Below are positions 17,644 to 49,055 of a stretch of 64,000 nt of DNA, piece by piece. The notes under the pieces are model-generated. The model was not told the DNA's origin. It made no database searches and was given only the letters and a program-made list of their open reading frames with translations. The stretch is from positions 24,853-88,852 of the forward strand of contig CAZMZJ010000008.1 of assembly GCA_964570825.1 (NCBI GenBank), written 5' to 3'. Position 1 is the stretch's first letter. Each line of letters starts with the position of its first letter. Source of the stretch: an uncultured Lachnospiraceae bacterium (lineage in GTDB: Bacteria; Bacillota; Clostridia; Oscillospirales; CAG-272). Both the position numbers and the translations under genes were made by a program.

Positions 17644-19128
17644 TTACACAGTCGATTTCAGCACGGCGTCAGCCGCCTCAAGGACGATGTCTTTTTCGCA
17701 GAAGGGTGTTTTTATTCCTCTTATAAGCTGATAATTCTCATGTCCCTTGCCTGCGAGGAGCAGGATGTCACCTTCTCTGAGAATCCCGACGGCGTACTTT
17801 ATGGCTTCGCGGCGGTCGGGAATAGATATATAATCGCATCCTCCCGGCACAAAGGCAGATGCAATATCGCGAATGATAAGCGCAGGGTCTTCACAGTCGG
17901 GGTTGTCAGCGGTCAGAATACATAAATCGCACAGTGACGAGGCGATTGCCCCGAGTTCCGGACGGCGCATCTGCGTGCGCCCTCCGACGGATCCGAAAAG
18001 ACAAATAAGGCGTTTTGGCTTGTAGCTTCTCAGAGTGTGAAGCACCGCGGAAAAGCTTGTCCCGTTGTGTGCGTAGTCGATGACTATCGTGGCATAGGGA
18101 AGTGCGTTGACAAGCTCAAATCTGCCCTCCACCTTTATCTGCGGCAGTGTATCAATAATCCTGTCGGTATCAGGAATATAGTTTCTACAGACTGCAATAG
18201 CCGCGAGAGCATTGCTTACGTTTATTTCTCCCGGAAGATTTAGCTGTGTTCTTCTGCAGTATGAGCCATTGATATAATCAAACGACACTCCGAGTGCTCC
18301 TGAAGTCCTGAATTGGGAAATATTCCCGGCCCGATGGTTTGCGTCAGTATTAAATCCGAATGTATCTACAGGTGCTTTGCAGCCGGCTACCATGTCATAA
18401 GAGTTGATATCGTCAGCGTTGATTATCGCACGGTCAAGCTTATATTTTGTAAAAAGGCTTGCTTTGCACGCCTTGTAATGGCTGAAGTCAGGGTGCTCCG
18501 AACCGCCTATGTGATCCGGTGAAAGATTTGTAAAGACGCACGTATCAAAATCTATGCAGCGAATGCGGTCAAGGTAGAGAGCCTGAGAGGAGACCTCAAG
18601 AGCGACATATCTGATACCGTATGACGCCATTTCGTAAAGATAACGCTGCAAATCGCAGCTCTCTGGCGTGGTGTTTGAAGTGCGGTGTTTGAAATTACCG
18701 TATTCGACGCCGTTTGAACCAATATAACCTGCCGGTATTCCGCAGCTGTTGAGAATTCCGGCAATCATCAGCGCTGTCGTGGTTTTTCCCTTAGTGCCGG
18801 TTATTCCGATTACTTTAAGACGCTGAGACGGATTTGCATAAAGACCGGCGGAAAGAGAGGCAAGAATTTTGCGGGTATTGACAGCATACATAACCGCCGC
18901 GTCGCTTGGAAGATCAAGCTTTTGTTCGGCAACAAACGCCCGGCAGCCGAGGTTATATGCCGACCGGGCAAAAAGATGTCCGTCTGTCACCGAACCGCTG
19001 ATGCAGACAAAGACTGAATTTGATCTTGCGGCTCTTGAGTCGGAGCATATGTGACCTATTTCAATATCGGTGTTCCCAATGCAGTAATTATTTGGGCAGG
19101 TCAATGATATTAGATCACTAAATTTCAT
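17644..19128 (-). CDS. murE: UDP-MurNAc-L-Ala-D-Glu:diamino acid ligase (MurE family), probably not meso-DAP specific
   Basis: 494 aa; GITGTKGKTTT P-loop, DYAHN, LLLAGKGHE. The DAP-recognition motif reads DNPD (17896-17907) instead of DNPR. Confidence 0.88.
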   Translation of the reverse strand: MKFSDLISLTCPNNYCIGNTDIEIGHICSDSRAARSNSVFVCISGSVTDGHLFARSAYNLGCRAFVAEQKLDLPSDAAVMYAVNTRKILASLSAGLYANPSQRLKVIGITGTKGKTTTALMIAGILNSCGIPAGYIGSNGVEYGNFKHRTSNTTPESCDLQRYLYEMASYGIRYVALEVSSQALYLDRIRCIDFDTCVFTNLSPDHIGGSEHPDFSHYKACKASLFTKYKLDRAIINADDINSYDMVAGCKAPVDTFGFNTDANHRAGNISQFRTSGALGVSFDYINGSYCRRTQLNLPGEINVSNALAAIAVCRNYIPDTDRIIDTLPQIKVEGRFELVNALPYATIVIDYAHNGTSFSAVLHTLRSYKPKRLICLFGSVGGRTQMRRPELGAIASSLCDLCILTADNPDCEDPALIIRDIASAFVPGGCDYISIPDRREAIKYAVGILREGDILLLAGKGHENYQLIRGIKTPFCEKDIVLEAADAVLKSTV

Positions 19129-19907
19129 ATTGAACAGCCTTTCATGCCTATTGTTGAAATTTGTGATGCGGCAAATCTGTTAAGAGTATCCGGAAAGCCG
19201 CGGCTTTTTTTGCCGCAGGCTGCGATGGTGCATGCCGCGAGGACTTCAAGCGAATCGATATATGTTTCGGGAAGGTGATATGTCTTTTTTATTAGCGAAA
19301 GCTCGGTGCATCCGAGAATCAGCCTTTCGCTGCCCATAGCGAGCAGGCTTTCCGAAACGGCATGGAATGACGTCATATCTGGTTCGTTTCCGCGTTTGAC
19401 CGCGCCATATATTATGTCTGTAAGCAGAGCTTGTTCCTTCGGAGCGCATTGTATGCAGCCGACTCCTTCCGTAAGACATACGGTTCGGTATGCCCCCGCC
19501 CTCGCCGTGCCTTCTGTGGACATGATTCCGATGCTGCCAGCGCCGATATATTTTGCGTATCTTACGGTCAGTTCAATAATATTCAGCAGAGGGACGGGAG
19601 ATGCGTCTTTTAACGAATTGTAAAAATAGTGAGCCGTGTTGCATGGCATTGCGATAAGATCTGCGCCTGCGTCAGCCAGACGGCGAGCCTCCTCAACCAT
19701 GACCGGAAGCGGATTCAAGCATGATGCGCCGGTTATAAAAGCCGTTCTGTCCGGGGTTGTCGCCCGGCTGCTGAGTATTATATCTATATGATCCTGATCG
19801 CAATTTGCGGCGGTATGTGTGGTTATTAGTTCATAGAAATAAACGCTGGACATGGGGCCGAGGCCACCAAGTATCCCAAGCACAGGGGTCGAATTGCTGG
19901 CTTTCAC
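19125..19907 (-). CDS. Asp/Glu-family (PLP-independent) amino-acid racemase, aspartate racemase-like
   Basis: 260 aa with both catalytic Cys motifs (MPCNTAHYF and LGCTELSL). The stop overlaps the murE start (ATGA). Confidence 0.85.
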   Translation of the reverse strand: MKASNSTPVLGILGGLGPMSSVYFYELITTHTAANCDQDHIDIILSSRATTPDRTAFITGASCLNPLPVMVEEARRLADAGADLIAMPCNTAHYFYNSLKDASPVPLLNIIELTVRYAKYIGAGSIGIMSTEGTARAGAYRTVCLTEGVGCIQCAPKEQALLTDIIYGAVKRGNEPDMTSFHAVSESLLAMGSERLILGCTELSLIKKTYHLPETYIDSLEVLAACTIAACGKKSRGFPDTLNRFAASQISTIGMKGCSI

Positions 19908-21135: not shown

Positions 21136-21163
21136 TTGACAATATCACATAAAATGGTATAAT
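21136..21163 (+). promoter_or_regulatory. SigA-type promoter of the rpiR-family gene
   Basis: TTGACA, 16 nt, TATAAT with TGn extended -10, about 40 nt upstream of ATG 21203. Confidence 0.7.
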
Positions 21164-35646: not shown

Positions 35647-37895
35647 CTGGCGGCTCCGTTGTTTTGATTTTTGTAGTAGTTCATAAGGCAACCATCAAGG
35701 ATTATCTGCTTCTCGTCGGTAGTAAGTCCGTTTATTTCAAGTTTTATATCGCCGACAGTTCCGTCTGCTTTGATAGTTTTTGCGATGAAAATCGTATCGC
35801 CTGCCACAAGCTTTGCGCGTATGTCTGGAACAAATATGAAGTCGCCCTGTGAAAGCTCGAATTTTTCGCCCTGTGCAAGGGTAAAGGGAAGAATTCCCAA
35901 GTTAATGCAGTTTGAACGGTAACGTTTGGTCGCATACTGGACGCAAATATTCGCAAGTCCGCCAAGCACCTTCTGGCATGACGCCGCCTGCTCGCGCGCG
36001 GAACCGTCGCCCGGGCGTGTCGCATAGATGCAGGAGCCGAACTGTGTTCTCCCGAGAAGATTGTCCGCGCTGCCAACAAGCGAAAGCACCTTCCTGATTT
36101 TTTCGGGAGAGCCGCCGGAGCGCCTTTCAGCTTCAATTTTTGCCGCCGCTTTAGCACGGGATACATAGTCCGGGACTCTGCGTGAAAGAGTAAATTCGGC
36201 AAGGCGCAGGGGATTTGAACGGTATGATGATGTTTCCCCTGAGGGAATCAGCTCGTCTGTGGTTGTCACTTCGTCGCGTATTACAGCGGCAAGCTCGACG
36301 AGCAAGTTTTCGCCAAGTGAATACTGCGCTGGCCAGTCGGTGATATTCGGGCCCAAAATAAGTTTTGTTTCTGGCTTGGCTTTTCCGAATCCGTAATAAA
36401 CTCGGTGTTCGTAAGGTGAGTTATCAAAGTGATAGTCATATGTCGGTGAAAGGTAATCAATTTCATCCGCCGGGGTAATCGCTCCGCCGTTTATTGCTGT
36501 GGCTGCGATGCTGCGCGAGTCCATTAGAGCAACTCCGGCTATCTGATGGTCTTTCGGTATCGATCCCTCGCGGTTCGGAAAATTCCGGGTAGTATGGCGG
36601 AGCGAAAGGCCGTTGTTTGCCGGGACGTCGCCTGCTCCGAAACAGGGGCCGCAGAAGGATGGTTTTATTACGGCGCCGTTTTTCAGCAGAGCCGAGGTTA
36701 CTCCAATGCGCGTCAGCTCAAGCGATACCGGAACGCTTGTCGGATATACTGAGAGCGAGAAATAATCGTTTCCGGCTCCGCCTTTCTCAAGAATTGACGA
36801 TGCCTCGCAAATATTGTCGAACATGCCGCCGGCACATCCCGCAATAATGCCCTGATCAGCGTAAACCTTGCCGCCTTTAATTTTGCTAAGCAGTGAAAAT
36901 TTTTGCCCTTTGAATAAGTTTTGAGCTTCATTTTCTATCCTTGAGAGTATATCGGAGGCGTTTGCAGTAAATTCTCTTATTGTATAGGCATTGGAGGGGT
37001 GGAAGGGCAGAGCTATCATTGGCTCAAGCTTTGAAAGATCAAACTCTATGCAGCGGTCATAAAATGCGACGGCTCCGGGTTTGAGCTCTTTGTAGTCCTG
37101 CGGGCGTCCGTGGATCGCATAGTGCTTTTTTATCACATCGTCTGTTTCCCATATGGACGTAAGGCAGGTTGTTTCCGCTGTCATGACATCAATGCCGTTT
37201 CTGAAATCCACGGGCAGGGATGCGATACCGGGGCCTGCAAATTCAAGGACAAGATTCTTGACAAATCCGGATTCGTACACCGCCTTGATAAGCGCTATAG
37301 CGGCATCATGCGGGCCGACGCCGCGGCGGGGTTTGCCGGTCAGATAGACAAGTACTATCTCCGGATAGTTGATATCATAAGTGCGGCGGAGCAGCTGCTT
37401 TACAAGTTCGGGACCGCCCTCGCCGATTCCCATAGTGCCGAGAGCCCCGTAGCGCGTGTGAGAGTCTGAGCCGAGAATCATTGATCCGCATTTTGACATT
37501 TCCTCGCGCGCGTAGGAATGTATTACGCTCTGGTTTGCAGGGACATATATTCCGCCGTATTTTTTTGCGGCGGAAAGCCCGAATACATGGTCGTCCTCGT
37601 TGATTGTGCCGCCGACTGCGCAGAGTGAGTTATGGCAGTTAGTGAGAGCGTACGGCACTGGGAACTCGGTCATTCCGCTCGCCCGGGCGGTCTGTATTAT
37701 GCCGACGTATGTAATATCGTGGGACACCAACGAATCAAAGCGGAGCATAAGCTTGTCCTCTTTGCCAGAAATGTTATGTGCCTTTAGGATGCCGTAGGAA
37801 ATTGTGTTTTTCCTCGCCTCGGCTGCGGGTACTGAAGATGTCGCGGACAGTTTTCCGCCGGCTAAAAATATGCCGTTCTGGTGGAGCTTAATCAT
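35643..37895 (-). CDS. Aconitate hydratase (about 750-aa form)
   Basis: Fe-S ligand motifs GSDSHT, CAGG..., CGPCFG; C-terminal swivel domain. Confidence 0.9.
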
Positions 37896-37978
37896 AAATT
37901 CAGAAATCCTCTATAGGTTTATTTATATCCTTATGCAATCCGGCGTAGCCGGAAATAATTGATACGGACAATAAAAAC

Positions 37979-38007
37979 ATTTTAACATGATACATTGTAA
38001 AAGTCAA
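37979..38007 (-). promoter_or_regulatory. Candidate SigA promoter of the aconitase-icd operon
   Basis: Minus strand TTGACT, 17 nt, TAAAAT, about 80 nt upstream of the start. Confidence 0.55.
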
Positions 38008-38080
38008 TATTGCATTTATAATTTCGTCAACATATATACCCTTAAGCATATATAATCACAGTATATAGTACTTCTTTTTG

Positions 38081-38109
38081 TTGACAAAGAAAAACAGCGA
38101 TGTTATAAT
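38081..38109 (+). promoter_or_regulatory. SigA-type promoter upstream of the transglutaminase-like/Dlt-like gene string
   Basis: Perfect TTGACA, 17 nt, TATAAT. Confidence 0.75.
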
Positions 38110-38200
38110 AAATATGTTTATTTATTATTAAACTATTGGCGATACCGCCGAAAAATCATACGGCATAATGACATGTGCCAATACGCCACGGGAGTCATGT

Positions 38201-39184
38201 ATGAATCGGACCGCTCAAACTCCGCGCGCTTATCGCGATAAAAACAAAGATAAATATAAAAAAGATCAAAAAGATAGAATACTGATATTTTCTTCGCTTG
38301 CAATGGCGTCGGCAGCCATGTTGATTTTTATCCTGATACTGACGCTGCCGTTGCTTTTTCGGGGAAACACGTCGGAAAATGTCAAAAAAGGAACTGAAAA
38401 CGATTTTAGCTGGGATACTACGGCGCCGGTTATTAAAGGAGTAAAAAATCTCACTGTATATAAAGGAGAATCGGTCGCATACAGAAAAAATATTATTCTT
38501 GACGACAACAGCGGAAGCGGCAACGTCACGCTGACGGTTGATTCGAGCAAGGTTAATACTGATAAGCCCGGAACATATGTTGTGTATTATATTGCGACCG
38601 ACAAAGCAGGAAATAAAACTTCGGTTTCGGTTTTTGTGACAGTCATAGAACCGCAGATTCCGCTTGAGAAGCTCAACGCGGCTGTGGACAATGTAATCGC
38701 CGCAATTATTACCGACGGAATGAGCAAGGAAGCACAATGCCGCGCTGTTTATAGCTATATTCAGGGGCACATTGCGTACGCCTCGACATCCGATAAGTCG
38801 GACTGGCGGGCTGAAGCCTACCGGGCGTTATTTGTCAGCGGGACAGGAGACTGCTTCAGCTTTTTTGCCGCAGCGAAAGCATTCCTTGACAGGCTCGGAA
38901 TTGAAAATCTCGATATCCAGCGGACACCCGGACTGCTTGACGAAACGCATTACTGGAGCCTTGTGAATATTGGCACCAGCGCGCAGCCGCGCTGGTATCA
39001 CTTTGACGCCACAAGGCTGAGAGCGGAATACAACCACAGCGGATGTCTTCTTACAGAGGTTCAGATTGAAGCATATAACCATGTGAGAAAAAACTTTTAT
39101 GCATACGATAAATCCGCATACCCCGAGGTCTGCAATATAATAATCACTCCGACACCGGAGCTTGAACCATATTATAATAACTGA
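38201..39184 (+). CDS. Membrane-anchored extracellular protein: Ig-like (DUF5011-type) domain plus transglutaminase-like Cys protease-fold domain
   Basis: Basic N-terminus and one TM segment (ILIFSSLAMASAAMLIFILILTLPLLF). Ig-like region APVIKG...GTYVVYYIATDKAGNKTSVSVFVTV. Cys-His-Asp core: GTGDCFSFFAAAKAF ... HYWSLVNIG ... WYHFDAT. ATG 38201 follows GGGAG. Confidence 0.75.
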   Translation: MNRTAQTPRAYRDKNKDKYKKDQKDRILIFSSLAMASAAMLIFILILTLPLLFRGNTSENVKKGTENDFSWDTTAPVIKGVKNLTVYKGESVAYRKNIILDDNSGSGNVTLTVDSSKVNTDKPGTYVVYYIATDKAGNKTSVSVFVTVIEPQIPLEKLNAAVDNVIAAIITDGMSKEAQCRAVYSYIQGHIAYASTSDKSDWRAEAYRALFVSGTGDCFSFFAAAKAFLDRLGIENLDIQRTPGLLDETHYWSLVNIGTSAQPRWYHFDATRLRAEYNHSGCLLTEVQIEAYNHVRKNFYAYDKSAYPEVCNIIITPTPELEPYYNN

Positions 39185-39217
39185 AAAGGACAAACAGCCG
39201 TAAACAGGCTTACGCAT

Positions 39218-40717
39218 ATGCTCAACAATATACTTCAATATCTTGAAAATACCGCCGCAAGACTGCCGGACAAGACGGCCCTGTCGGATGGCACCGACAA
39301 CTTATCATTCGGAGAATTGCTAAAAAGGGCGCAGGCAATCGGAAGCTTCATCGCGAAACGAGGCTGCCATAAAGAGCCGGTTCCCGTTGTTATGGACAAG
39401 CATCCGAATACCGTTGCGGCATTTCTTGGCGTTGTATATGCCGGATGTTTTTATGTGCCGATAGATTCTGAGATGCCGATAAAGCGCGCGGAGCTAATAG
39501 CTCAGTCTTTGAACCCGAAATTTATAATAGCCGATAAAAAGAACTGTGATTTTGCGCGAGGACTCGGAACCGGCGAGGTGCTGCTTTACGACGATATTTC
39601 GTCAGACCTGCCGGACGATGTGCTTCTCGATAGAATACGCTCCGGACAGATCGACACAGATCCGATTTATATTGTTTTTACTTCTGGCTCGACCGGAGTT
39701 CCGAAGGGCGTTGCAGCCTGCCACCGTTCAGTGATCGACTATGCGGAAAGTCTTTCTGAGGCGCTCGGATTCAGCGAAAAAAATGTTTTCGGGAACCAGA
39801 CGCCGCTTTATTTTGACGCACCGCTCAAGGAAATCCTGCCGACGCTCAAATTCGGAGCTACGACATATTTTATCCCGAAAAAGCTGTTTATGTTTCCGGT
39901 AAAGCTTGTCGAGTATCTGAACGAGCATAAAATAAACACAATATGCTGGGTGGTCTCGGCTCTGACAATGATATCCGCTTTTAATACATTCGATAAAATC
40001 AAGCCTCAATATCTTACCACAGTCGCATTCGGGAGCGAAGTTTTTCCGATTAAACAGTTCAATATATGGCGCGACGCGCTGCCCGACGCTGCTTTTTACA
40101 ATCTTTACGGACCGACCGAATGCACCGGAATGTCAACATGGTATAAAGTAGAAGATAAAGTTAAAGACGGTGAACCCATACCCATAGGCCGGCCTTTCAG
40201 GAACACCCGTATAACCCTGATTAACGAAAATGGAAAAGAGGCCGCGCCGGGGGAAACGGGGGAAATCTATATTTCAGGAACCTGTGTTACGCTGGGGTAT
40301 TACAACAACCCGGATAAGACGAACGAAGCGTTTGTTCAAAACCCCCTTGTATCGGCATACCGCGAGATTGTGTATAAAACCGGAGACCTTGCTCGCAGAA
40401 ACGAGAAGGGAGAGCTGATATTCATATCCCGCAGGGATTATCAGATAAAGCATATGGGACACCGCATAGAGCTGGGGGAGATTGAAGCAGCCGCAGACAA
40501 ACACCCTGATGTTGCGCGTTCATGCTGCATTTATGACGATGAGAATAAAAGGATCCTCATGTTTTATATAGGAACCGCGGAACCGACGGAGCTGGGGCTA
40601 TATCTTAAAGACTATTTACCGCGCTATATGCTGCCGGGAAGCATCAGGAAACTCGATATGCTGCCGCTTACTCCGAACGGAAAGCTCGACCGCCGGGCAC
40701 TTAAAAATTTAGAATAA
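39218..40717 (+). CDS. DltA-like carrier-protein ligase (stand-alone adenylation enzyme)
   Basis: 499 aa; FTSGSTGVPKG, YGPTE, YKTGDL and PNGKLDRRAL motifs. The size and the following small carrier protein mirror DltA/DltC. Confidence 0.8.
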   Translation: MLNNILQYLENTAARLPDKTALSDGTDNLSFGELLKRAQAIGSFIAKRGCHKEPVPVVMDKHPNTVAAFLGVVYAGCFYVPIDSEMPIKRAELIAQSLNPKFIIADKKNCDFARGLGTGEVLLYDDISSDLPDDVLLDRIRSGQIDTDPIYIVFTSGSTGVPKGVAACHRSVIDYAESLSEALGFSEKNVFGNQTPLYFDAPLKEILPTLKFGATTYFIPKKLFMFPVKLVEYLNEHKINTICWVVSALTMISAFNTFDKIKPQYLTTVAFGSEVFPIKQFNIWRDALPDAAFYNLYGPTECTGMSTWYKVEDKVKDGEPIPIGRPFRNTRITLINENGKEAAPGETGEIYISGTCVTLGYYNNPDKTNEAFVQNPLVSAYREIVYKTGDLARRNEKGELIFISRRDYQIKHMGHRIELGEIEAAADKHPDVARSCCIYDDENKRILMFYIGTAEPTELGLYLKDYLPRYMLPGSIRKLDMLPLTPNGKLDRRALKNLE

Positions 40718-40738
40718 AGGATTGTGTGAATACTTGAA

Positions 40739-40966
40739 ATGGATGAACTGTTGAAGATACTGAAAGAGCTGCACGGTGATGTGGATTTCACATGCGAGGA
40801 GGGGCTTGTTGACAACGGCATTCTCGATTCGCTTGACATCGTAACCCTTGTCACAGAAATTAACGATAAATTCGGCGTATCAATACCCGCTGAAGAGATA
40901 CTGCCCGAAAATTTCAACTCGGCAAAAGCTATAATGAATCTAATCACAAAACTTGACGAGGTTTAA
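40739..40966 (+). CDS. DltC-like acyl/aminoacyl carrier protein
   Basis: 75 aa with the GILDSLDIVTLV phosphopantetheine Ser motif in a DltC-like context. Confidence 0.8.
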   Translation: MDELLKILKELHGDVDFTCEEGLVDNGILDSLDIVTLVTEINDKFGVSIPAEEILPENFNSAKAIMNLITKLDEV

Positions 40967-40971
40967 GGCAG

Positions 40972-42561
40972 GTGCTTTTCACATCATTTGAGTTTCTGCT
41001 GTTCGCCGCGACGCTGCTGGTTTTGTATTACATCGTCCCGAAAAAGGCGCAATGGGTGCTGCTTCTTCTCGCAAGCTACATATTTTACGGCTTTGCGGGT
41101 TTGAAGTATCTTGCCTTTATCGTGTCGACGACGGCGGTGTCGTATTTCACCGCCTTTTTCATGGGCAGGATGGAGGAACGCGAAAAGCAATATATCGACG
41201 CAAACCGAGACAATATGTCAAAGGACGAGCGAAAGGAATACAGGGCGAGGGCAAAAAAACGCAGGGTTTGCGTTTTGCTCACGGGGCTAATCGCGGGCTT
41301 CGGCATTCTCGCGGTAATAAAGTATTCCGCCTTTGCGGTAATAAATATAAACTCGCTTCTCCATATCTTCGGAGCACGCACTCTGGTTGTTCCAAACCTT
41401 TTGCTGCCTCTTGGAATTTCGTTTTACACATTTATGTCGATGAGCTACATCATCGACGTTTACCGCGGCAAAACGGCGCCTGAGAAGAACCCGGCAAAGC
41501 TTGCGCTTTTTGTGTCTTTTTTTCCTCAGGTTATTCAGGGACCTATATCGCGTTTCGGAGACCTTGAGCCTCAGCTATGCTCAGGGCATAAATTCGACTC
41601 GAAAAATCTTGTATTCGGGCTTCAGCGCGTTATATGGGGGTATTTCAAGAAGCTGGTCATAGCCGATAGAATTCTTGTGGCGGTGCAGACGCTGATGAAG
41701 AACACCGATGATTACAGCGGAATGTATGTCGTGCTTCTCATATTATTCTATTCGATTGAAATTTACGCCGACTTTACCGGAGGAATTGATATTACAATCG
41801 GCATTGCAGAAGCACTGGGGATAAAATTAGCCGAAAACTTCAGACACCCGTTTTTCTCAAAGTCTACGAAGGAATACTGGCGCCGCTGGCATATCACTAT
41901 GGGCACATGGTTCACCGATTATATTTTTTATCCGTTATCGGTGTCAAAACCCATGCAGAAGCTGTCGAAAAAGAGCCGTGAAGTATTCGGAAGTACGGTC
42001 GGTAAACGGATACCGGTCTATCTTGCAACAATAATTACATGGTTTCTGACCGGTCTCTGGCACGGAGCCGGGTGGAACTTTATCGTCTGGGGACTTTTGA
42101 ACTGTCTTGTTATTCTCGTATCGCAGGAATTCCAGCCGCTTTATGATAAATTCCACAGCGCCGCCCCACGGTTTGCCGAATCGAAGGGCTATGGGATTTT
42201 CATGGCGGCGCGCACATTCTGGCTGATGGGAGCCATACGAGTACTTGACTGCTACAGGGATGTGCCGCTGACATTCAGAATGTGGGGAAGTATCTTCTCG
42301 GCTGCCAACTGGGGAGATATTTTCAATGGAAAAATCATTTCGCTGGGACTTGGCGCGGCCGACTACATCGTTGTGGCTGCGGGATGTCTGATAATGTTTG
42401 CGGTAAGCTTTCTCGGCGAAAAGAAAAGCGTCCGCGAAAGGCTTTACGGGCGGACGGTGCTGTCGGCATCGGTATTTTCACTGCTGTTTTTGTCTATCAT
42501 AATTTTCGGAGCATACGGCGTCGGATACGACGCAAGTCAGTTTATATATAATCAATTTTAA
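40972..42561 (+). CDS. MBOAT family membrane O-acyltransferase (DltB/AlgI-like, 529 aa)
   Basis: MLFTSFEFLLF N-terminus, polytopic, with the conserved EYWRRWHITMGTWFTDYIFYPL His region. Longer than canonical DltB. Confidence 0.85.
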   Translation: MLFTSFEFLLFAATLLVLYYIVPKKAQWVLLLLASYIFYGFAGLKYLAFIVSTTAVSYFTAFFMGRMEEREKQYIDANRDNMSKDERKEYRARAKKRRVCVLLTGLIAGFGILAVIKYSAFAVININSLLHIFGARTLVVPNLLLPLGISFYTFMSMSYIIDVYRGKTAPEKNPAKLALFVSFFPQVIQGPISRFGDLEPQLCSGHKFDSKNLVFGLQRVIWGYFKKLVIADRILVAVQTLMKNTDDYSGMYVVLLILFYSIEIYADFTGGIDITIGIAEALGIKLAENFRHPFFSKSTKEYWRRWHITMGTWFTDYIFYPLSVSKPMQKLSKKSREVFGSTVGKRIPVYLATIITWFLTGLWHGAGWNFIVWGLLNCLVILVSQEFQPLYDKFHSAAPRFAESKGYGIFMAARTFWLMGAIRVLDCYRDVPLTFRMWGSIFSAANWGDIFNGKIISLGLGAADYIVVAAGCLIMFAVSFLGEKKSVRERLYGRTVLSASVFSLLFLSIIIFGAYGVGYDASQFIYNQF

Positions 42562-42579
42562 TGGAAGGCTGCCTGTCAT

Positions 42580-43197
42580 ATGAAAATCGTTCTTGCAACA
42601 AGGAACAAACATAAAATTAAAGAATATGAGGCTCTGCTTGCCCGGCACATAGACGGTATCGAGCTTTTGTCGCTTGACGACGTCGGAATAAGTGGCGACA
42701 TCGAGGAAACCGGCGAAACGTTTTACGATAACGCTATGATTAAAGCAAGGGCCGCGGCAAAATCAGGATATTTGTCAATTGCCGACGATTCGGGACTTGC
42801 AGTGGCAGCACTCGGAGGAGAACCCGGAGTGCGTTCGGCGCGATATGCCGGAGAACACGGCAACGACAGGGCAAACAATGAGCTGTTGCTGAAAAAAATG
42901 CGTGGAGTGTCTGACCGGAGTGCGGAATTTGTCTGCTGTATTGCATGCGCGTTTCCAAACAGCGACGGAGAAGGGGATTTTGTAGTCCAGGGCACCGTGC
43001 CCGGCGAAATTCTTTGCGAAGCGCGCGGCGATGGGGGATTCGGGTACGACCCGCTTTTCTGGTTTGACCCGCTCGGAAAGACTTTCGCGGAACTTACGAT
43101 GGAGGAAAAGAATGAGGTGAGTCACAGGGCTGTGGCGGTAAAGACACTGGCTGAGAAGCTCAAGGAAATAATCAGAATAAGGAATATGTTATGCTGA
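42580..43197 (+). CDS. rdgB: Non-canonical purine NTP pyrophosphatase (RdgB/HAM1)
   Basis: IVLATRNKHKIKE, DDSGL, GFGYDPLF, SHRA. Confidence 0.93.
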   Translation: MKIVLATRNKHKIKEYEALLARHIDGIELLSLDDVGISGDIEETGETFYDNAMIKARAAAKSGYLSIADDSGLAVAALGGEPGVRSARYAGEHGNDRANNELLLKKMRGVSDRSAEFVCCIACAFPNSDGEGDFVVQGTVPGEILCEARGDGGFGYDPLFWFDPLGKTFAELTMEEKNEVSHRAVAVKTLAEKLKEIIRIRNMLC

Positions 43198-43478
43198 CAT
43201 CAAAACAGAGAGCGTATCTGCGCGGACTTGCCTCCGGCGAGGATACAATTATACAGATAGGCAAGGGCGGTATCGGCGGGAATCTGATAAAAAATGTATC
43301 AGACGCTCTTGAGGCGAGGGAGCTTATAAAGCTGCGTGTGCTCGAAAACAGCGAAGAAACGCCGAGAAGCGCGGCTGAGGAGATTGCGAAAGCGACCGGC
43401 GCCGAAGTGGTGACTGTTATAGGGACAAAATTCGTTTTATACCGCGAGTCTGAAAACCATAAGAGAATAGAGCTGTGA
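43191..43478 (+). CDS. yhbY: Ribosome assembly RNA-binding protein YhbY (CRM domain)
   Basis: 95 aa; LTSKQRAYLRGLA...IQIGKGG...LIKLRV. Confidence 0.9.
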   Translation: MLTSKQRAYLRGLASGEDTIIQIGKGGIGGNLIKNVSDALEARELIKLRVLENSEETPRSAAEEIAKATGAEVVTVIGTKFVLYRESENHKRIEL

Positions 43479-43481
43479 AGT

Positions 43482-44099
43482 ATGATTGACAAGATATTGA
43501 GGACCGGGATTTACGGCGGAACATTTGCGCCGGTGCATAACGGCCATGTTTTGGCAGCCAAAGCTTTTCTTGAGCAGATGAAGCTCGACGAACTGCTAAT
43601 CATCCCGGCGTCGATTCCGCCTCATAAAAAGATAGACGAATCCGATAACCCGGAACATCGGATGCGGATGTGCGAGCTTGCCTTCGGGGATATTCCGAAC
43701 ATTGTGGTTTCTGATATAGAAATCCGGCGCGGCGGGCGGAGCTATACTGTCGATACCCTCCGCGAGCTGACAGCACCCGGAAGGAAACTGTTTCTCCTCT
43801 GCGGCACAGACATGATGCTTACCTTTGATGAATGGCGGGAATTTGAAACGATATTCAAGCTTTGCTGCCCTGTGTATATACGGAGAGAGGATGACCGCGG
43901 GCTTGACGCAAGGATAATCGAAAAGAACAACGAATATTATAATAAATACGGAGTTGCGTTCAGAAAAATCGTGGCAGATCCGGTTGTAATGTCGTCGACG
44001 GAAATAAGGGAAAAAATAAAAGCCGGCGGCGATATATCTGATTATGTGCCTCCTAAAGTGGCGGAATATATAAAAGAGAATAAATTATATGTCAAATGA
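43482..44099 (+). CDS. nadD: Nicotinate-nucleotide adenylyltransferase
   Basis: GIYGGTFAPVHNGH, SSTEIR. Confidence 0.93.
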   Translation: MIDKILRTGIYGGTFAPVHNGHVLAAKAFLEQMKLDELLIIPASIPPHKKIDESDNPEHRMRMCELAFGDIPNIVVSDIEIRRGGRSYTVDTLRELTAPGRKLFLLCGTDMMLTFDEWREFETIFKLCCPVYIRREDDRGLDARIIEKNNEYYNKYGVAFRKIVADPVVMSSTEIREKIKAGGDISDYVPPKVAEYIKENKLYVK

Positions 44100-44721
44100 A
44101 AAAATAACAGAAAAGATGCTAAACATGCTGCGCGAGGAAATCAGAGGGCGGCTGAGTGAAGGGCGGTTCATTCACACGGAAGGCGTTGAAAAAACAGCTG
44201 CGGCAATATCAGAGATATATGCTCCCGGACTTGTGCAAAAAATGCGCGCCGCAGCTCTTCTTCATGATTTTACAAAAGAATATTCTTTGGAAAAGCAGTT
44301 GAAAATCTGCCATGATTTTGGTATAATATTAAGAGATGACGAAAAATCAGCGCCCTTGATATTGCATTCTATAACAGCAGCTGCGCTGATTCCTTCAGAG
44401 TTTCCGGAATACGTCTGCGATGAAATAATCGGGGCTGTCCGCTGGCATACCACAGGACACGCCGGGATGACACTCCCGGAAAAAATCCTTTGCCTTGCTG
44501 ATTATATCGAGGATGGGAGAAAATATTCAGATTGCATCGCTGCCAGAGAAGTATTCTGGGGCGGTCATCCGGAAAAGCTGGGTGAGAGTGAACGTATTAG
44601 TCTCCTCGACCGCACGCTGGTAATATCGTTGGAAAATACAGTGGCGCATGTTGAGGCAAAAGGCGGAGTAGTCAACCGCGATACGTATGAAGCTTTGAAA
44701 TATCTTGGGAAAAACAATTGA
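44089..44721 (+). CDS. yqeK: HD-domain bis(5'-nucleosyl)-tetraphosphatase YqeK
   Basis: HTEGV...LLHD HD motif. It follows nadD as in Bacillus. Confidence 0.88.
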   Translation: MSNEKITEKMLNMLREEIRGRLSEGRFIHTEGVEKTAAAISEIYAPGLVQKMRAAALLHDFTKEYSLEKQLKICHDFGIILRDDEKSAPLILHSITAAALIPSEFPEYVCDEIIGAVRWHTTGHAGMTLPEKILCLADYIEDGRKYSDCIAAREVFWGGHPEKLGESERISLLDRTLVISLENTVAHVEAKGGVVNRDTYEALKYLGKNN

Positions 44722-44812
44722 ACCGAGATATACATATTATTTAAGATTACATATAGCAAAATTGTTTAATTAAATATTTCCGAATTACATAATTGCGGCA
44801 TGCCCGTCAAGG

Positions 44813-46006
44813 ATGATGAAAGCACGAGGTGTAATTATTGTGATTCGGAAAACAAATCGCAGCTATACGCTGCTTCCGCTGCCGGTTATCGGCATTATGA
44901 TAACAGCGCTGTTCCTTTTGATTTATGCAACTGTTTTTGTTTTTGCAAAACCAAGTGAGGTCGCCGGCACAAGCAGACTGACAAAAGAGGGAAGCGGTCT
45001 GTTCGGTGATGATTATACTGCCGGCAGCAACAGCTGCAACCGGGACAATGGCATTGAAACAGGCGTCGAAGAATCTTCTGTGCCTGATGCGGAGCATGGA
45101 AAAACTTATGTTTTTCTTGCCGCAGGCAGGGACGAGGTGTCCGGACTCACCGATGTATTGATGCTTGTTTCGTTTGACACCGAAAACCTGAAAGTCAATG
45201 TAGTACAGATCCCGCGCGACACATATTTCCGCTGTACGAAACGCACCTACCGTAAAATAAACGGCGCGGCGGAAGCGCTTGGAGGAATCGACAAGCTTGC
45301 TGAAGCTCTTGAAGCCGCGTTGGGAATAAATATCGACTATACGGCGCAGTTTTCGCTTGATGCCTTGGGAAAAATGGTTGATCTCATCGGCGGAGTGCCG
45401 GTGAAAATTCCGTATGAAATGGACTATGAAGATCCATATCAGAACCTTTATATACACCTTGACGCGGGGGAACACATATTGAACGGCGATGACGCCAAGC
45501 AGTTTGTGCGTTTCCGCGCCGGATATGTCCGTGGAGATATAGCCAGAACAGACGCACAGAAAATATTCATGGCGGCTTTTGTCAAAAAGCTCACGACGGG
45601 AGTAAGCATTCTGAAGATTCCGTCTATAATAAACGTTATGCTTGGCGACGTTAAAACCAATATGACCTTTACGGAATGCCTTGAGTTTGCGCAGAAGGCC
45701 CTGAAGGTAAAAACAACCGACGTCATTATGATTACCCTGCCCGGAAACGATGCCAGAACTAAGGTTGACAGCGGGGCGTGGTACTATATAATAAACAGGA
45801 TTGCGGCGCTTGAGGTGGTCAATAAATATCTCAACGCTTCTGATGCTCCGGTTGCGGAAGAAATGTTCGATAAGGAGCGTCTCTTCACAAACGAAGAATA
45901 TCCGCAGTTTGAAGAAATCTATTGCGGCGACGGATATAGCATTCAGGAATACCGCGCCGATGAAATAAATGAAAACGGTATTGAAATTAGTATAACAGAC
46001 AAATGA
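44813..46006 (+). CDS. LCP (LytR-CpsA-Psr) family cell-wall polymer transferase
   Basis: N-terminal TM segment; core VFLAAGRDE...TDVLMLVSFD...VQIPRDT...FVRFR. The start is uncertain (ATG 44813 or GTG 44840 after GAGGTG). Confidence 0.85.
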   Translation: MMKARGVIIVIRKTNRSYTLLPLPVIGIMITALFLLIYATVFVFAKPSEVAGTSRLTKEGSGLFGDDYTAGSNSCNRDNGIETGVEESSVPDAEHGKTYVFLAAGRDEVSGLTDVLMLVSFDTENLKVNVVQIPRDTYFRCTKRTYRKINGAAEALGGIDKLAEALEAALGINIDYTAQFSLDALGKMVDLIGGVPVKIPYEMDYEDPYQNLYIHLDAGEHILNGDDAKQFVRFRAGYVRGDIARTDAQKIFMAAFVKKLTTGVSILKIPSIINVMLGDVKTNMTFTECLEFAQKALKVKTTDVIMITLPGNDARTKVDSGAWYYIINRIAALEVVNKYLNASDAPVAEEMFDKERLFTNEEYPQFEEIYCGDGYSIQEYRADEINENGIEISITDK

Positions 46007-46037
46007 TTCTGACTTAAGAAGGAGATACAGTGAACTG

Positions 46038-46529
46038 ATGAGAGAAATTCTGACGGACGACCAATACAGACTGCTGCCTTCGCTGAAAAATGCCGAACCG
46101 CTTGAGTTGGCGACAGCGATTTACGATATACTATATGACAAAAGAGGCAGGAATATCAGGATGCTGCATGTTGAGGACAAGACGACAATAGCGCATTATT
46201 TTGTTCTGTGCACCGGTACTTCAAGCACGCAGGTGAGAGGCCTTGCCGACGAGGTGGAGTATAAAACGCGGCTGCGCGGGTTGCATCCGTCAAATGTGGA
46301 AGGCCGGGGAAACGGAGCATGGATTCTCCTGGACTATGGGACAGTGCTTGTACACGTATTCAACCGCGAAGCGCGCGAGTTTTACAATCTTGACAAACTA
46401 TACGGCGACGCAACCGTTGTCAATATGAAGGACAATGAGGATGAAGAAAATACAGACGACGGAGTTTTATATAATTCCGAATCCGATGACGGAAAAGAAA
46501 CCGGCGAAGAAAAAATAATAGATAATTAA
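46038..46529 (+). CDS. rsfS: Ribosome silencing factor RsfS with an acidic C-terminal tail
   Basis: HYFVLCTGTSSTQVRGLADEV..., WILLDYGTVLVHVF..E.REFYNLDKLYGDA, plus a D/E-rich extension of about 35 aa. Confidence 0.9.
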   Translation: MREILTDDQYRLLPSLKNAEPLELATAIYDILYDKRGRNIRMLHVEDKTTIAHYFVLCTGTSSTQVRGLADEVEYKTRLRGLHPSNVEGRGNGAWILLDYGTVLVHVFNREAREFYNLDKLYGDATVVNMKDNEDEENTDDGVLYNSESDDGKETGEEKIIDN

Positions 46530-46652
46530 ACGCGTGTAAACAGATCAGCAATAAATATGCAGTGCGCGGCAGAGGCAGAACTCCTGTCCACGGTGTTCCG
46601 AAAGATGCGCGCAGAGTTCAGCTGCAGTAAAACGAAAGGTAATCATTTTAAG

Positions 46653-49055
46653 ATGAAATACGATTTTAAGGCAATTGAGGAAAAATGGCAGTCGCGCTGG
46701 GAGAGCGAGGGTGCTTTCCGCGCGAAGGACGGCTCTGATAAACCCAAATTTTATGCACTTGTGGAGTTTCCGTACCCGAGCGGCGCCGGGATGCACGTCG
46801 GACACATAAAGGCTTATTCTGGGCTTGAGGTCATTTCACGGAAGCGTAGAATGCAGGGGTACAACGTACTTTTCCCGATCGGGTTTGATGCATTCGGCCT
46901 TCCGACCGAAAACTACGCGATAAAAACCGGAGTTCACCCGAGGGCGGCAACCGATAAAAATATCGCAAAATTTACTTCTCAGCTCAAGCGCGTCGGCTTC
47001 TCGTTCGACTGGTCGCGCGTGATTGATACAACGGATGAGAGCTATTACAAGTGGACGCAGTGGATATTTCTGAAAATGTTCGAAAACGGACTTGTATTCC
47101 GCGACAAGGCGCTCGTAAACTACTGCCCGAGCTGTAAGGTTGTGCTTTCAAACGAGGACTCGCAGGGCGGAAAATGCGATATCTGCCACAGCGAGATTGT
47201 TCAGAAGTCAAAGGATGTCTGGTATCTGCGAATCACAGAGTACGCCGACAAGCTGCTCAAAGGTCTTGACGAGGTGGATTATCTTCCCAATATTCGCCAG
47301 CAGCAGGTCAACTGGATCGGCAGGTCTGCCGGAGCTTTCGCCAACTTTAGGATAAAAGGCACAGACGACAGCCTGAAAATTTACACAACGCGCCCCGATA
47401 CAATGTTCGGAGTTACCTTCATGGTTATCGCGCCCGAGCATCCGGTTATCGAAAAATACAGAAACAAGATAAAAAACATGCCGGCCATTGAGGCTTACCG
47501 CGACGAGTGCGCCAAAAAGACCGAGTTTGAACGCACACAGCTGGTCAAGGATAAAACCGGTGTGAAAATTGAAGGCATCGAAGCAATCAATCCGCTGACC
47601 GGCAAAGAAATTCCGGTTTACATAGCCGATTACGTTATGATGGGCTACGGAACCGGAGCGATAATGGCGGTTCCGGCTCACGACGAGCGCGACTATGATT
47701 TTGCAAAGAAGTTCGGACTTGAAATAATTGAAGTTATAAAAGGCGGAAACATTGCCGAGGCCGCGTATACCGGCGAGGGCGAAATGGTCAATTCCGGATT
47801 TCTCAACGGGATAAAAACAAAAGAGGAAGCTATAAACGCCGCCATAAAGAAGCTTGAAGAAATCGGAGCCGGCGAGGCCGGAGTCCAGTACAAGATGAAG
47901 GACTGGGCATTCAACCGCCAGAGATATTGGGGCGAGCCGATTCCGATTGTTCATTGCCCAAAGTGTGGTATGGTTGCCGTGCCGTATGACGAGCTGCCGC
48001 TTAAACTGCCAAAAGTCGAAAATTTCGAGCCGGGCGAGGGCGGGGAAAGCCCGCTGGCTAAAATCGAATCTTTCGTCAACTGCAAATGTCCCAAATGCGG
48101 AGGAGCGGCAAAACGTGAAACTGACACCATGCCGCAGTGGGCGGGTTCATCATGGTATTTTTTGCGCTACATCGACCCGAAGAACGATACGGCGTTTGCC
48201 GATAAGAATAAGCTGAGATACTGGCTGCCTGTCGACTGGTACAACGGCGGAATGGAACATGTGACCAGGCATATGATTTACTCGCGTTTCTGGCACAAGT
48301 TCCTCTATGATATCGGCGAGGTCCCGACCGACGAGCCGTATGCAAAGAGAACGGCGCAGGGCCTTATCTTAGGGCCTGACGGCGAAAAGATGAGCAAGTC
48401 AAAGGGGAATGTGGTTGACCCGAACGATGTGGTGGACGAATACGGCGCTGACGTGCTGCGTCTTTATATTCTTTTCATGGGCGACTATGAAAAGGCGGCT
48501 CCGTGGTCCGAGAGCAGCGTGCGCGGCTGCAAGCGGTTTCTTGACCGCGTTGCGGGACTTGCCGACATGGTGACGGGAAGCGGAGTCTCACCTGAGCTTG
48601 ACGCAAAGATGCACAAGGCAGTCAAAAAGGTGTCGGCTGACATAGACGAGATGAAATTCAACACCGCAATCGCAGCCATGATGACTCTGGTGAACGACAT
48701 ATACGAGTACGGTTCTCTGACCGTTGACGAGCTTAAAACATTTATTAAAATATTATGCCCGTTTGCTCCGCATCTTTGTGAAGAAATATGGGAGCAGCTC
48801 GGAGGGAAAGGATTTTTATCGCTGTCCGAGTGGCCTTCGTTCGATGAGGCAAAAACTGTTGATGAAAGCGTTGAAGTTGCGGTTCAGATTAACGGCAAGC
48901 TGCGCGGGACGGTGATGCTTCCGCTTGACTGTCCGCGCGACGACGCGCTTGCCGCCGTTAAGGCTGACGAAAAAATCGCGCCGATGCTCGAAGGCAAAAC
49001 AATAATCAAGGAAATCACGGTGCCGAACCGCATTGTGAATTTTGTGGTTAAATAA
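46653..49055 (+). CDS. leuS: Leucine--tRNA ligase
   Basis: 800 aa from MKYDFKAIEEKWQ; HVGH (HIGH) and KMSKS motifs and the CP1 editing domain. The track's upstream ATG 46557 adds a non-conserved 32 aa. Confidence 0.96.
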   Translation: MKYDFKAIEEKWQSRWESEGAFRAKDGSDKPKFYALVEFPYPSGAGMHVGHIKAYSGLEVISRKRRMQGYNVLFPIGFDAFGLPTENYAIKTGVHPRAATDKNIAKFTSQLKRVGFSFDWSRVIDTTDESYYKWTQWIFLKMFENGLVFRDKALVNYCPSCKVVLSNEDSQGGKCDICHSEIVQKSKDVWYLRITEYADKLLKGLDEVDYLPNIRQQQVNWIGRSAGAFANFRIKGTDDSLKIYTTRPDTMFGVTFMVIAPEHPVIEKYRNKIKNMPAIEAYRDECAKKTEFERTQLVKDKTGVKIEGIEAINPLTGKEIPVYIADYVMMGYGTGAIMAVPAHDERDYDFAKKFGLEIIEVIKGGNIAEAAYTGEGEMVNSGFLNGIKTKEEAINAAIKKLEEIGAGEAGVQYKMKDWAFNRQRYWGEPIPIVHCPKCGMVAVPYDELPLKLPKVENFEPGEGGESPLAKIESFVNCKCPKCGGAAKRETDTMPQWAGSSWYFLRYIDPKNDTAFADKNKLRYWLPVDWYNGGMEHVTRHMIYSRFWHKFLYDIGEVPTDEPYAKRTAQGLILGPDGEKMSKSKGNVVDPNDVVDEYGADVLRLYILFMGDYEKAAPWSESSVRGCKRFLDRVAGLADMVTGSGVSPELDAKMHKAVKKVSADIDEMKFNTAIAAMMTLVNDIYEYGSLTVDELKTFIKILCPFAPHLCEEIWEQLGGKGFLSLSEWPSFDEAKTVDESVEVAVQINGKLRGTVMLPLDCPRDDALAAVKADEKIAPMLEGKTIIKEITVPNRIVNFVVK

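Follow-up and report, generated by a model that had tools for sequence, protein, structure and literature searches.

Does a Dlt-like pathway that has no DltD of its own use a membrane-anchored transglutaminase-fold protein in its place? This question is raised by four genes lying between positions 38081 and 42561 of a 64,000-nt stretch of DNA from an uncultured Lachnospiraceae bacterium (contig CAZMZJ010000008.1, assembly GCA_964570825.1; the whole stretch is called the window here), for which an earlier note, made from the letters and their reading frames, had proposed such a replacement. The genes encode a membrane-anchored protein with an immunoglobulin (Ig)-like and a transglutaminase-like domain, an amino-acid adenylating enzyme, a carrier protein and an MBOAT (the first two are abbreviated TG and A in gene orders below). 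Comparison with related genomes and metagenome contigs points to another answer: with a probability of about 0.72, the operon is the relocated front half of an envelope aminoacylation system of six genes (seven in some lineages) found in uncultured gut and digester Clostridia, in which the transglutaminase-fold enzyme is a constant extra partner, while an SGNH-like protein and a lipoprotein are encoded in trans in the window's clade.

All four genes lie on the plus strand and form one operon. Gene 1 (38201..39184, 327 aa) encodes the membrane-anchored protein; its longest open reading frame (ORF) runs from the first ATG at 38168 to 39184 (338 aa), and the ATG at 38201 is the probable start because a GGGAG sequence lies 6 nt 5' of it and homologues begin there. 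It is followed by gene 2 (39218..40717) for a stand-alone adenylating enzyme of the nonribosomal peptide synthetase (NRPS) type with 499 aa, gene 3 (40739..40966) for a carrier protein of 75 aa, and gene 4 (40972..42561) for an MBOAT of 529 aa whose core is DltB-like and which is extended at its C-terminus. The next gene in the same direction is rdgB (42580-43197). The ORF coordinates reproduce the spacing given in the earlier note, with gaps of 33, 21, 5 and 18 nt from gene 1 to rdgB, and the motifs that it had listed (GDCFSF, THYW, HFDAT and LDSLDIV) are present, as are the Ig, transglutaminase, adenylation, carrier and MBOAT domains.

The conservation of this arrangement was followed in two ways. 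Species-representative genomes were scanned with an alignment of the transglutaminase-like protein, 80 of the 175 relatives being kept, and metagenome contigs were scanned independently with the SGNH-like protein as the seed. Wherever a genome locus has at least 2 kb of downstream sequence, the adenylating-enzyme gene follows the transglutaminase-like gene (66/66), and the carrier and MBOAT genes come next wherever the contig extends far enough. The gene after the MBOAT is SGNH-like in 54 of the 59 genome loci with sequence beyond it and rdgB in 5. From the opposite end, the SGNH-seeded metagenome loci include an MBOAT in 49/53 cases and a transglutaminase homologue in all 30 loci with enough upstream sequence. 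This homologue stands first in the cluster even at 27–29% identity, where the neighbouring MBOAT is still 63% identical. The four-gene block occurs in differing contexts (acn/icd ... rdgB versus metH ... hrcA-grpE-dnaK) and, because the flanking genes metH, hrcA and acn vary between lineages, it is conserved as a unit. The two suggestions of the earlier note that concern linkage, namely that the four genes belong together and that the transglutaminase-fold protein accompanies the triad of adenylating enzyme, carrier and MBOAT, are thus supported across genomes and metagenomes. The system as a whole is a conserved one of six genes, seven in some lineages, with TG-A-carrier-MBOAT-SGNH-lipoprotein as the ancestral order. 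Its families are large, comprising at least 839 clusters of transglutaminase-like proteins and more than 7,000 clusters at 90% identity for each of the MBOAT and SGNH-like proteins, and members come from Oscillospiraceae, Clostridia and Eubacteriales metagenome-assembled genomes of gut and digester origin.

Other arrangements are seen in some loci (L102/L103; L119, L123, L153), either carrier-MBOAT-SGNH-lipoprotein, the A and transglutaminase genes being absent from the neighborhood, or A-carrier-MBOAT separated by several kb from transglutaminase-SGNH-lipoprotein, so that more than one split form is tolerated by the system. Some relatives have a 500-aa fusion of glycerophosphodiester phosphodiesterase and inositol monophosphatase inserted between the transglutaminase-like and A genes (L019:3612-5114, L020:10927-12423, L040:4052-5557), an insert which may hint at a glycerophosphate-containing acceptor. 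A 239-aa membrane protein encoded upstream in locus L004 was considered as a component and rejected, as it occurs only in very close relatives.

The position of rdgB directly 3' of the MBOAT is confined to the loci nearest the window (L001/L007, L003, L008, L009, L011, L063, L083, L089, L172, L173 and L175), and these share the context acn/icd ... rdgB-yhbY-nadD-yqeK-LCP-rsfS-leuS. The SGNH-seeded scan also returned solo pairs of SGNH-like and lipoprotein genes that are flanked by ftsY and hrcA and lack an MBOAT within 10 kb (L104, L121). Both kinds of locus are carried by contig CBDSCQ010000070.1 (GCA_965349405.1, 130,367 nt), about 81 kb apart: smc-ftsY-SGNH-lipoprotein-hrcA-grpE-dnaK at about 32 kb (SGNH-like protein P0270), and uvrA-ABC-icd-acn / TG-A-carrier-MBOAT-rdgB-...-leuS at about 111–116 kb. 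The latter locus is collinear with the window over 21 consecutive genes (28.9–53.8 kb of the window), and UvrA, Icd and LeuRS are 80–81% identical between the two. Both loci are also held by GCA_965329805.1, on separate contigs, and the closest relative of the window (L175; MBOAT 84% and LeuRS 91% identical) is found in GCA_016294925.1 alongside a solo locus (L104/L174). The solo SGNH genes retain the GDCE, SYIRG and DTYDxGxH motifs, and the unsplit clusters of the lineages nearest the window's clade likewise lie directly upstream of hrcA. The simplest history is a move of the first four genes to the acn/rdgB site, with the last two remaining beside hrcA. GC content was tried as a further link between the solo loci and the window's clade and was discarded, since the two loci of one contig differ by 5 points.

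By this history, the SGNH/lipoprotein pair in the window's own genome would be expected some 80 kb upstream of the cluster. That position falls outside the window and agrees with the searches inside it, where tblastn and family hidden Markov models run with --max detected no SGNH, DltD-like or partner-lipoprotein gene in the 64 kb (best E 0.07 with the models). The description of the system as "DltD-less" therefore holds for the locus and for the window, but not for its relatives, in which intact SGNH-like and lipoprotein genes stand beside hrcA, in one case on the same contig; it is an artefact of viewing a single locus. The split itself offers a natural test of which partners need to be co-expressed.

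The first protein of the cluster belongs to the transglutaminase-like superfamily by profile score, catalytic triad and papain-like core fold. Its Pfam domains are Bact_surface_Ig-like (PF16403, 31.1 bits) and Transglut_core (PF01841), the latter marginal at 23.9 bits against a cut-off of 23 and scoring 39.7 bits in the relative from L004. The catalytic residues are Cys229 in GDCFSF (codon 38852..38854), His261 in THYW (38948..38950) and Asp280 in WYHFD (39005..39007), all on the plus strand and numbered on the 338-aa ORF (C218, H250 and D269 in the 327-aa form). The three are invariant in the alignment, the Cys being found in 17/17 aligned homologues, and the triad is intact in the 27–29% identical homologues of L087 and L088. 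In the model from AlphaFold2 (mean pLDDT 82, above 90 in the core), an N-terminal transmembrane helix (residues 25–63) is followed by an Ig-like sandwich and a papain/transglutaminase-like core. For this core Foldseek (E ~2e-4, TMq 0.34) returned Streptococcus pyogenes TglA (9crn), a putative cysteine protease of Cytophaga (3isr), the periplasmic domain of TgpA, PeiP and PNGase, whereas a search of PDB sequences with the protein gave Ig-like domains only and no transglutaminase-fold match. The fold anticipated in the earlier note is thus recovered, and so are the N-terminal anchor and the invariant Cys-His-Asp; given the K/R-rich N-terminus, the catalytic and Ig-like domains should face the outside. 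Transglutaminase-type enzymes normally form a thioester and then hand the acyl group to an amine, and by analogy the protein may be an acyl transferase or a hydrolase acting through a Cys thioester.

Close homologues of this protein also share a strongly conserved C-terminal tail, IITPTPxLExYY (residues 325–338 of the 338-aa ORF), and a second invariant Cys (C293, in HSGCLLT). In the distant homologues of L087 and L088 the tail is absent and the Cys of the C-L-x-T motif is retained.

The partner encoded after the MBOAT in relatives measures about 345 aa and has an N-terminal helix, and the gene after it encodes a putative lipoprotein of about 160 aa. No NCBIfam or Pfam model reaches its threshold for either product, and the larger protein has only a weak Lipase_GDSL_2 match. 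It has conserved blocks of the SGNH type (F-x-G-D-C-E, S-Y-x-R-G, A-P-T-N and D-T-Y-D-x-G-x-H-L-N), and its AlphaFold2 model (mean pLDDT 78) is matched by Foldseek to TesA, GDSL lipases, PatB and Enterococcus faecium DltD (6pfx), the last with the highest query coverage (TMq 0.42–0.44). At the place of the expected nucleophilic Ser an invariant Cys (GDCE) is found, for instance in L004:12668-13717 and L170:10001-11035, and throughout about 75 homologues.

These data bear on the proposal that the transglutaminase-fold protein is loaded by the MBOAT with the aminoacyl group, bound as a thioester of its Cys, carries out the final extracellular transfer and so replaces the DltD-type enzyme in the window's clade. 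The "DltD position" assigned to it is not the one it occupies, its gene being first in the cluster and that of the SGNH-like protein following the MBOAT, and the two genes coexist in 54/59 genome loci and 30/30 metagenome loci, which argues against a non-orthologous replacement in spite of the DltD-like topology and the invariant triad. The constant association of the transglutaminase-like gene with the A/carrier/MBOAT triad, and its having gone with these three genes and not with the SGNH pair at the split, do favor the proposal, as does the lack of an SGNH gene in the window; however, in syntenic relatives the SGNH/lipoprotein pair is intact in trans, its catalytic motifs preserved, and the transglutaminase-like proteins of the window's clade show no gain of function, being the shortest forms with a single Ig domain. 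A dltD-like gene elsewhere that is conserved together with the triad, which the earlier note would have counted against its idea had the transglutaminase-like gene not been conserved as well, does occur in relatives, but there the transglutaminase-like gene is co-conserved too. A DltD-less system with the transglutaminase as replacement is accordingly not supported, and this course of events is unlikely, but there is good support for the more modest view that the protein functions as a component of a Dlt-like system of a non-canonical kind.

What the system transports was approached through the adenylating enzyme. The gene 2 protein has an AMP-binding domain in Pfam and qualifies as an NRPS-type adenylation domain, with 342.1 bits against the NCBIfam amino-acid adenylation model TIGR01733 (cut-off 317.4) and an FDAP motif that supplies Asp235. 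The equivalog models for DltA are not reached (TIGR01734, 270.7 bits, cut-off 559.85; NF003417, 283.8 bits, cut-off 476); identity to Bacillus cereus DltA is 31.5%, and the protein is about equally near to NRPS A domains (LgrA, 187 bits per domain) and to DltA (176–190 bits). The ten specificity positions were extracted against GrsA, whose reference fragment returned the textbook code DAWTIAAICK, and the pocket was also read against B. cereus DltA, with a reference sequence identical to PDB 3FCC. In an indel-free alignment to DltA the code of the window is DAKCAGLGMK and that of DltA is DLMTLCTVAK, so the two differ at all eight variable positions and have only the universal Asp235 and Lys517 in common. 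A Gly aligns with DltA Cys269, a residue which we take to have a role in enantiomer selection, and the pocket is not of the D-Ala type. The comparison with D-Ala-specific DltA suggested in the earlier note therefore sets the two pockets apart. The code DAKC[A/C]GLGMK is found in 118/121 loci, and one conserved substrate is therefore implied across the family.

Asp235 marks a substrate with an alpha-amino group, that is, an alpha-amino acid, and Lys239 is found in Glu-activating domains (Glu code DAKDLGVVDK). Moreover, 18 loci have an Asp_Glu_race gene between the transglutaminase-like and A genes (E 4e-34; a TIGR00035 match, with a score that lies at the "cysteate racemase" cut-off), and 17 of these 18 share the exact pocket code of the window. 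On account of the conserved non-DltA pocket (Asp235, Lys239) and the cluster-linked Asp-type racemase, an acidic D-amino acid is the probable cargo, most likely D-Asp; D-Glu and D-cysteate are less likely candidates, and D-Ala is unlikely. With such a cargo the cell wall would carry a decoration of a new kind, which would shift the surface charge in the direction opposite to that of D-alanylation. The window itself has an Asp-racemase-family gene on the minus strand (19125-19907; TIGR00035; 195 bits against the "cysteate racemase" cut-off of 190), which overlaps by 4 nt the start of a murE-like ligase gene (17644-19128, minus strand). Its product is 40% identical to the racemases embedded in the cluster of the 18 relatives and could serve D-amino acid supply here or peptidoglycan synthesis. 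The carrier encoded by gene 3 matches PP-binding (PF00550, 31 bits) and scores below the cut-offs of the DltC models; its predicted phosphopantetheine-attachment site is Ser31 of the DSL triplet in LDSLDIV (40829-40831, plus strand).

The MBOAT has a clear family assignment (PF03062, 66.4 bits, cut-off 27) and contains the motifs WRRWH and WHG with the conserved His (codon 42061-42063, plus strand). It falls short of the DltB equivalog TIGR04091 (144.6 bits, cut-off 375), and its only sequence relatives in the PDB are DltB structures (8jem and 6bug, E 5e-22, residues 142–385). Beyond the DltB-like core it has about 145 additional C-terminal residues ending in ...SQFIYNQF, the last six of which (42541..42558, plus strand) form an FxYxxF motif with Tyr526 at 42547-42549. 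Among about 70 related loci, the F-I-Y core is missing from the MBOAT C-terminus in only two, which are apparently frameshifted. The FxYxxF motif has been described as an "acyl shuttle" whose invariant Tyr receives the acyl group at the outer face of the membrane; in Dlt it resides on the microprotein DltX, and in PatA, AlgI and related MBOATs it is part of the MBOAT itself, on two additional helices, the motif of Neisseria gonorrhoeae PatA being FIYANF (PMC12148441). The gaps of 33, 21 and 5 nt in the window's operon leave no room for a separate small ORF of the DltX type. Both the "AlgI size" of the MBOAT, which had been tied to a missing partner, and the lack of a DltX-like ORF are explained by this fused C-terminal shuttle segment.

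It could still be argued that the locus is a divergent dlt operon which D-alanylates teichoic acids, with an unrelated surface protease gene upstream by chance. The names point that way, since the best NCBIfam models behind the generic one for A domains are those of DltA, DltC and DltB, PDB sequences related to the MBOAT are limited to DltB and a Joint Genome Institute annotation also calls it DltB, yet every Dlt equivalog score is far under its cut-off, and the assertion of the earlier note that this is not a canonical dlt operon stands. The pocket shares with DltA no more than its two universal positions and has lost Cys269, the cluster-linked racemase is of the Asp type and not an alanine racemase, the shuttle is fused to the MBOAT instead of being carried by DltX, and the supposedly fortuitous transglutaminase gene has been kept in the cluster through changing contexts and gene orders, all of which make D-alanylation by this operon a quite improbable explanation. 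That the window copy is a decaying remnant, its four genes no longer working after parting from the SGNH/lipoprotein pair, could be suspected from the split and from the absence of a partner within 64 kb but is scarcely credible, as the four ORFs are all intact, at least 10 species-level relatives keep the four-gene locus (56–85% protein identity) with the triad, the FIY motif and the perfect promoter, and the pair in trans also keeps its motifs.

From the gene content, linkage, motifs and folds, and from the split arrangement in relatives, we infer a pathway with its cargo, its acceptor, the direction of every transfer and a role for the transglutaminase-fold enzyme. In the first step the adenylating enzyme would activate an alpha-amino acid, probably one of the acidic D-amino acids, for instance D-Asp, provided by an Asp-type racemase, and load it on the phosphopantetheine arm at Ser31 of the carrier. 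In the second, the MBOAT would carry the aminoacyl group across the membrane onto its own Tyr526 at the outer face, the PatA/AlgI solution taking the place of DltX. These two steps are drawn from homology and motifs; the third, drawn from conserved linkage and fold, would be the passage of the group to an envelope acceptor by the membrane-anchored Cys-SGNH protein, helped by the small lipoprotein. The transglutaminase-fold enzyme would add a further, obligatory reaction outside the cytoplasm, with the aminoacylated product or the acceptor as its substrate, most likely after the SGNH step or parallel to it. This could be an ester-to-amide relay to Lys or diaminopimelic acid (DAP) of peptidoglycan or to a surface protein, and a trimming or editing hydrolase would fit equally well. 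A bolder form of the scheme is that anaerobic Firmicutes export an acidic, D-Asp-like D-amino acid through the carrier, the MBOAT and its fused Tyr shuttle and relay it through two extracytoplasmic thiol enzymes, the Cys-type SGNH protein and the transglutaminase-fold enzyme, ending in an amide to an amine acceptor (a peptidoglycan Lys/DAP side chain or a surface protein); this is a speculative and rather doubtful extension which, if true, would amount to ATP-independent peptide-bond formation outside the cell.

Several points weigh against the reading of the operon as the front half of a split aminoacylation system with an acidic cargo. The trans-encoded SGNH/lipoprotein pair is predicted from three related assemblies, the evidence from the window extending over 64 kb, and the co-occurrence in GCA_016294925.1 is weaker evidence as this may be a metagenome-level assembly. 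The cargo assignment is indirect, based on one Lys, a neighboring racemase and a Glu code, and the cluster of the window has no racemase, the sole candidate (19125-19907) sitting with murE. Pocket positions 299 and 301 depend on the alignment, being V/F with MAFFT and with HMMER against GrsA/LgrA and A/G in the indel-free alignment to DltA; the A/G reading was adopted in place of V/F, and the ambiguity stays. The proposed chemistry is drawn from sequences and predicted folds, and the transglutaminase-fold enzyme may act ahead of the SGNH step, following it or alongside it.

Upstream of gene 1, a consensus sigma-70 promoter with a TG extension (TTGACA-17 nt-TATAAT; 38081..38109, plus strand) lies in the 272-nt gap that separates this gene from a divergent aconitase gene. 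It looks real and positionally conserved, as it matches at 12/12 positions, as the earlier note had stated, as the window contains 9 perfect TTGACA-N16-18-TATAAT promoters against 0.02 expected by shuffling, and as a perfect promoter stands directly 5' of the transglutaminase-like gene in 11 related loci. A leader riboswitch is not indicated, since an Rfam scan of positions 36000-47000 gave no match at E <= 0.1. Other perfect promoters of the window lie at 21136, 28841, 31816, 45765, 49090, 54134 and 55544, and one more (41918-41947, minus strand) is antisense within the MBOAT gene and not conserved in relatives. The promoter at 45765-45792 is located within the 3' part of an LCP gene (PF03816; 44813-46006, plus strand), ahead of rsfS-leuS. 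This LCP gene lies downstream in the same co-directional string and had been associated with the cluster; it was rejected as a pathway member, as it belongs to the local housekeeping string rdgB-yhbY-nadD-yqeK-LCP-rsfS-leuS and is absent beside unsplit clusters.

In the open-access literature no description was found of this cluster or of a link between transglutaminase-like proteins and MBOAT aminoacylation. The system is widespread and uncharacterised, and it is new as a variant of the MBOAT-SGNH pathways, distinguished by an SGNH protein of the Cys type, by a lipoprotein and by a transglutaminase-fold enzyme. The last of these belongs to a superfamily of bacterial and archaeal proteins that includes TgpA of Pseudomonas aeruginosa, the pseudomurein endoisopeptidases PeiP/PeiW and TglA (9crn). 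The core fold and triad are common to all of them, TgpA is likewise extracytoplasmic and membrane-anchored, and cell-wall peptide or isopeptide bonds are the targets of several of them. The gene 1 protein differs from them in its marginal sequence similarity, in the Ig-like domain or domains in front of the core and in its obligate link to an MBOAT aminoacylation cluster.

With Dlt (DltA, DltC, DltB, DltX, DltD) the system has in common an adenylating enzyme that loads an amino acid on a small carrier, a DltB-related MBOAT core that takes the cargo across the membrane and, in relatives, a final membrane-anchored SGNH-fold partner resembling DltD in fold. It departs from canonical Dlt in the absence of a DltA equivalog, of a D-Ala-type pocket, of DltB with a separate DltX and of a DltD encoded with the operon. 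Its Tyr shuttle forms part of the MBOAT, a Cys stands in the SGNH-like partner in place of the expected Ser, two constant components are added (the transglutaminase-fold enzyme and the lipoprotein), and the order is TG-A-carrier-MBOAT-SGNH-lipoprotein, split over two loci in the window's clade. With PatA/PatB and AlgI/AlgJ/AlgX it shares an MBOAT that has the conserved His and two extra C-terminal helices ending in FxYxxF, together with, in relatives, an SGNH-fold partner. Those fused-shuttle pathways use acyl-CoA (acetyl-CoA) and no carrier protein (PMC12148441), whereas a dedicated adenylating enzyme and carrier are encoded in every locus of the present system, which therefore points to an aminoacyl cargo, unlike that of PatA/AlgI. 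The current division of MBOAT-SGNH pathways sets Dlt, with a carrier donor and a separate DltX, against acetyl-CoA systems with a fused shuttle and no carrier. This cluster, which unites a carrier-protein donor and a fused shuttle, runs counter to that scheme.

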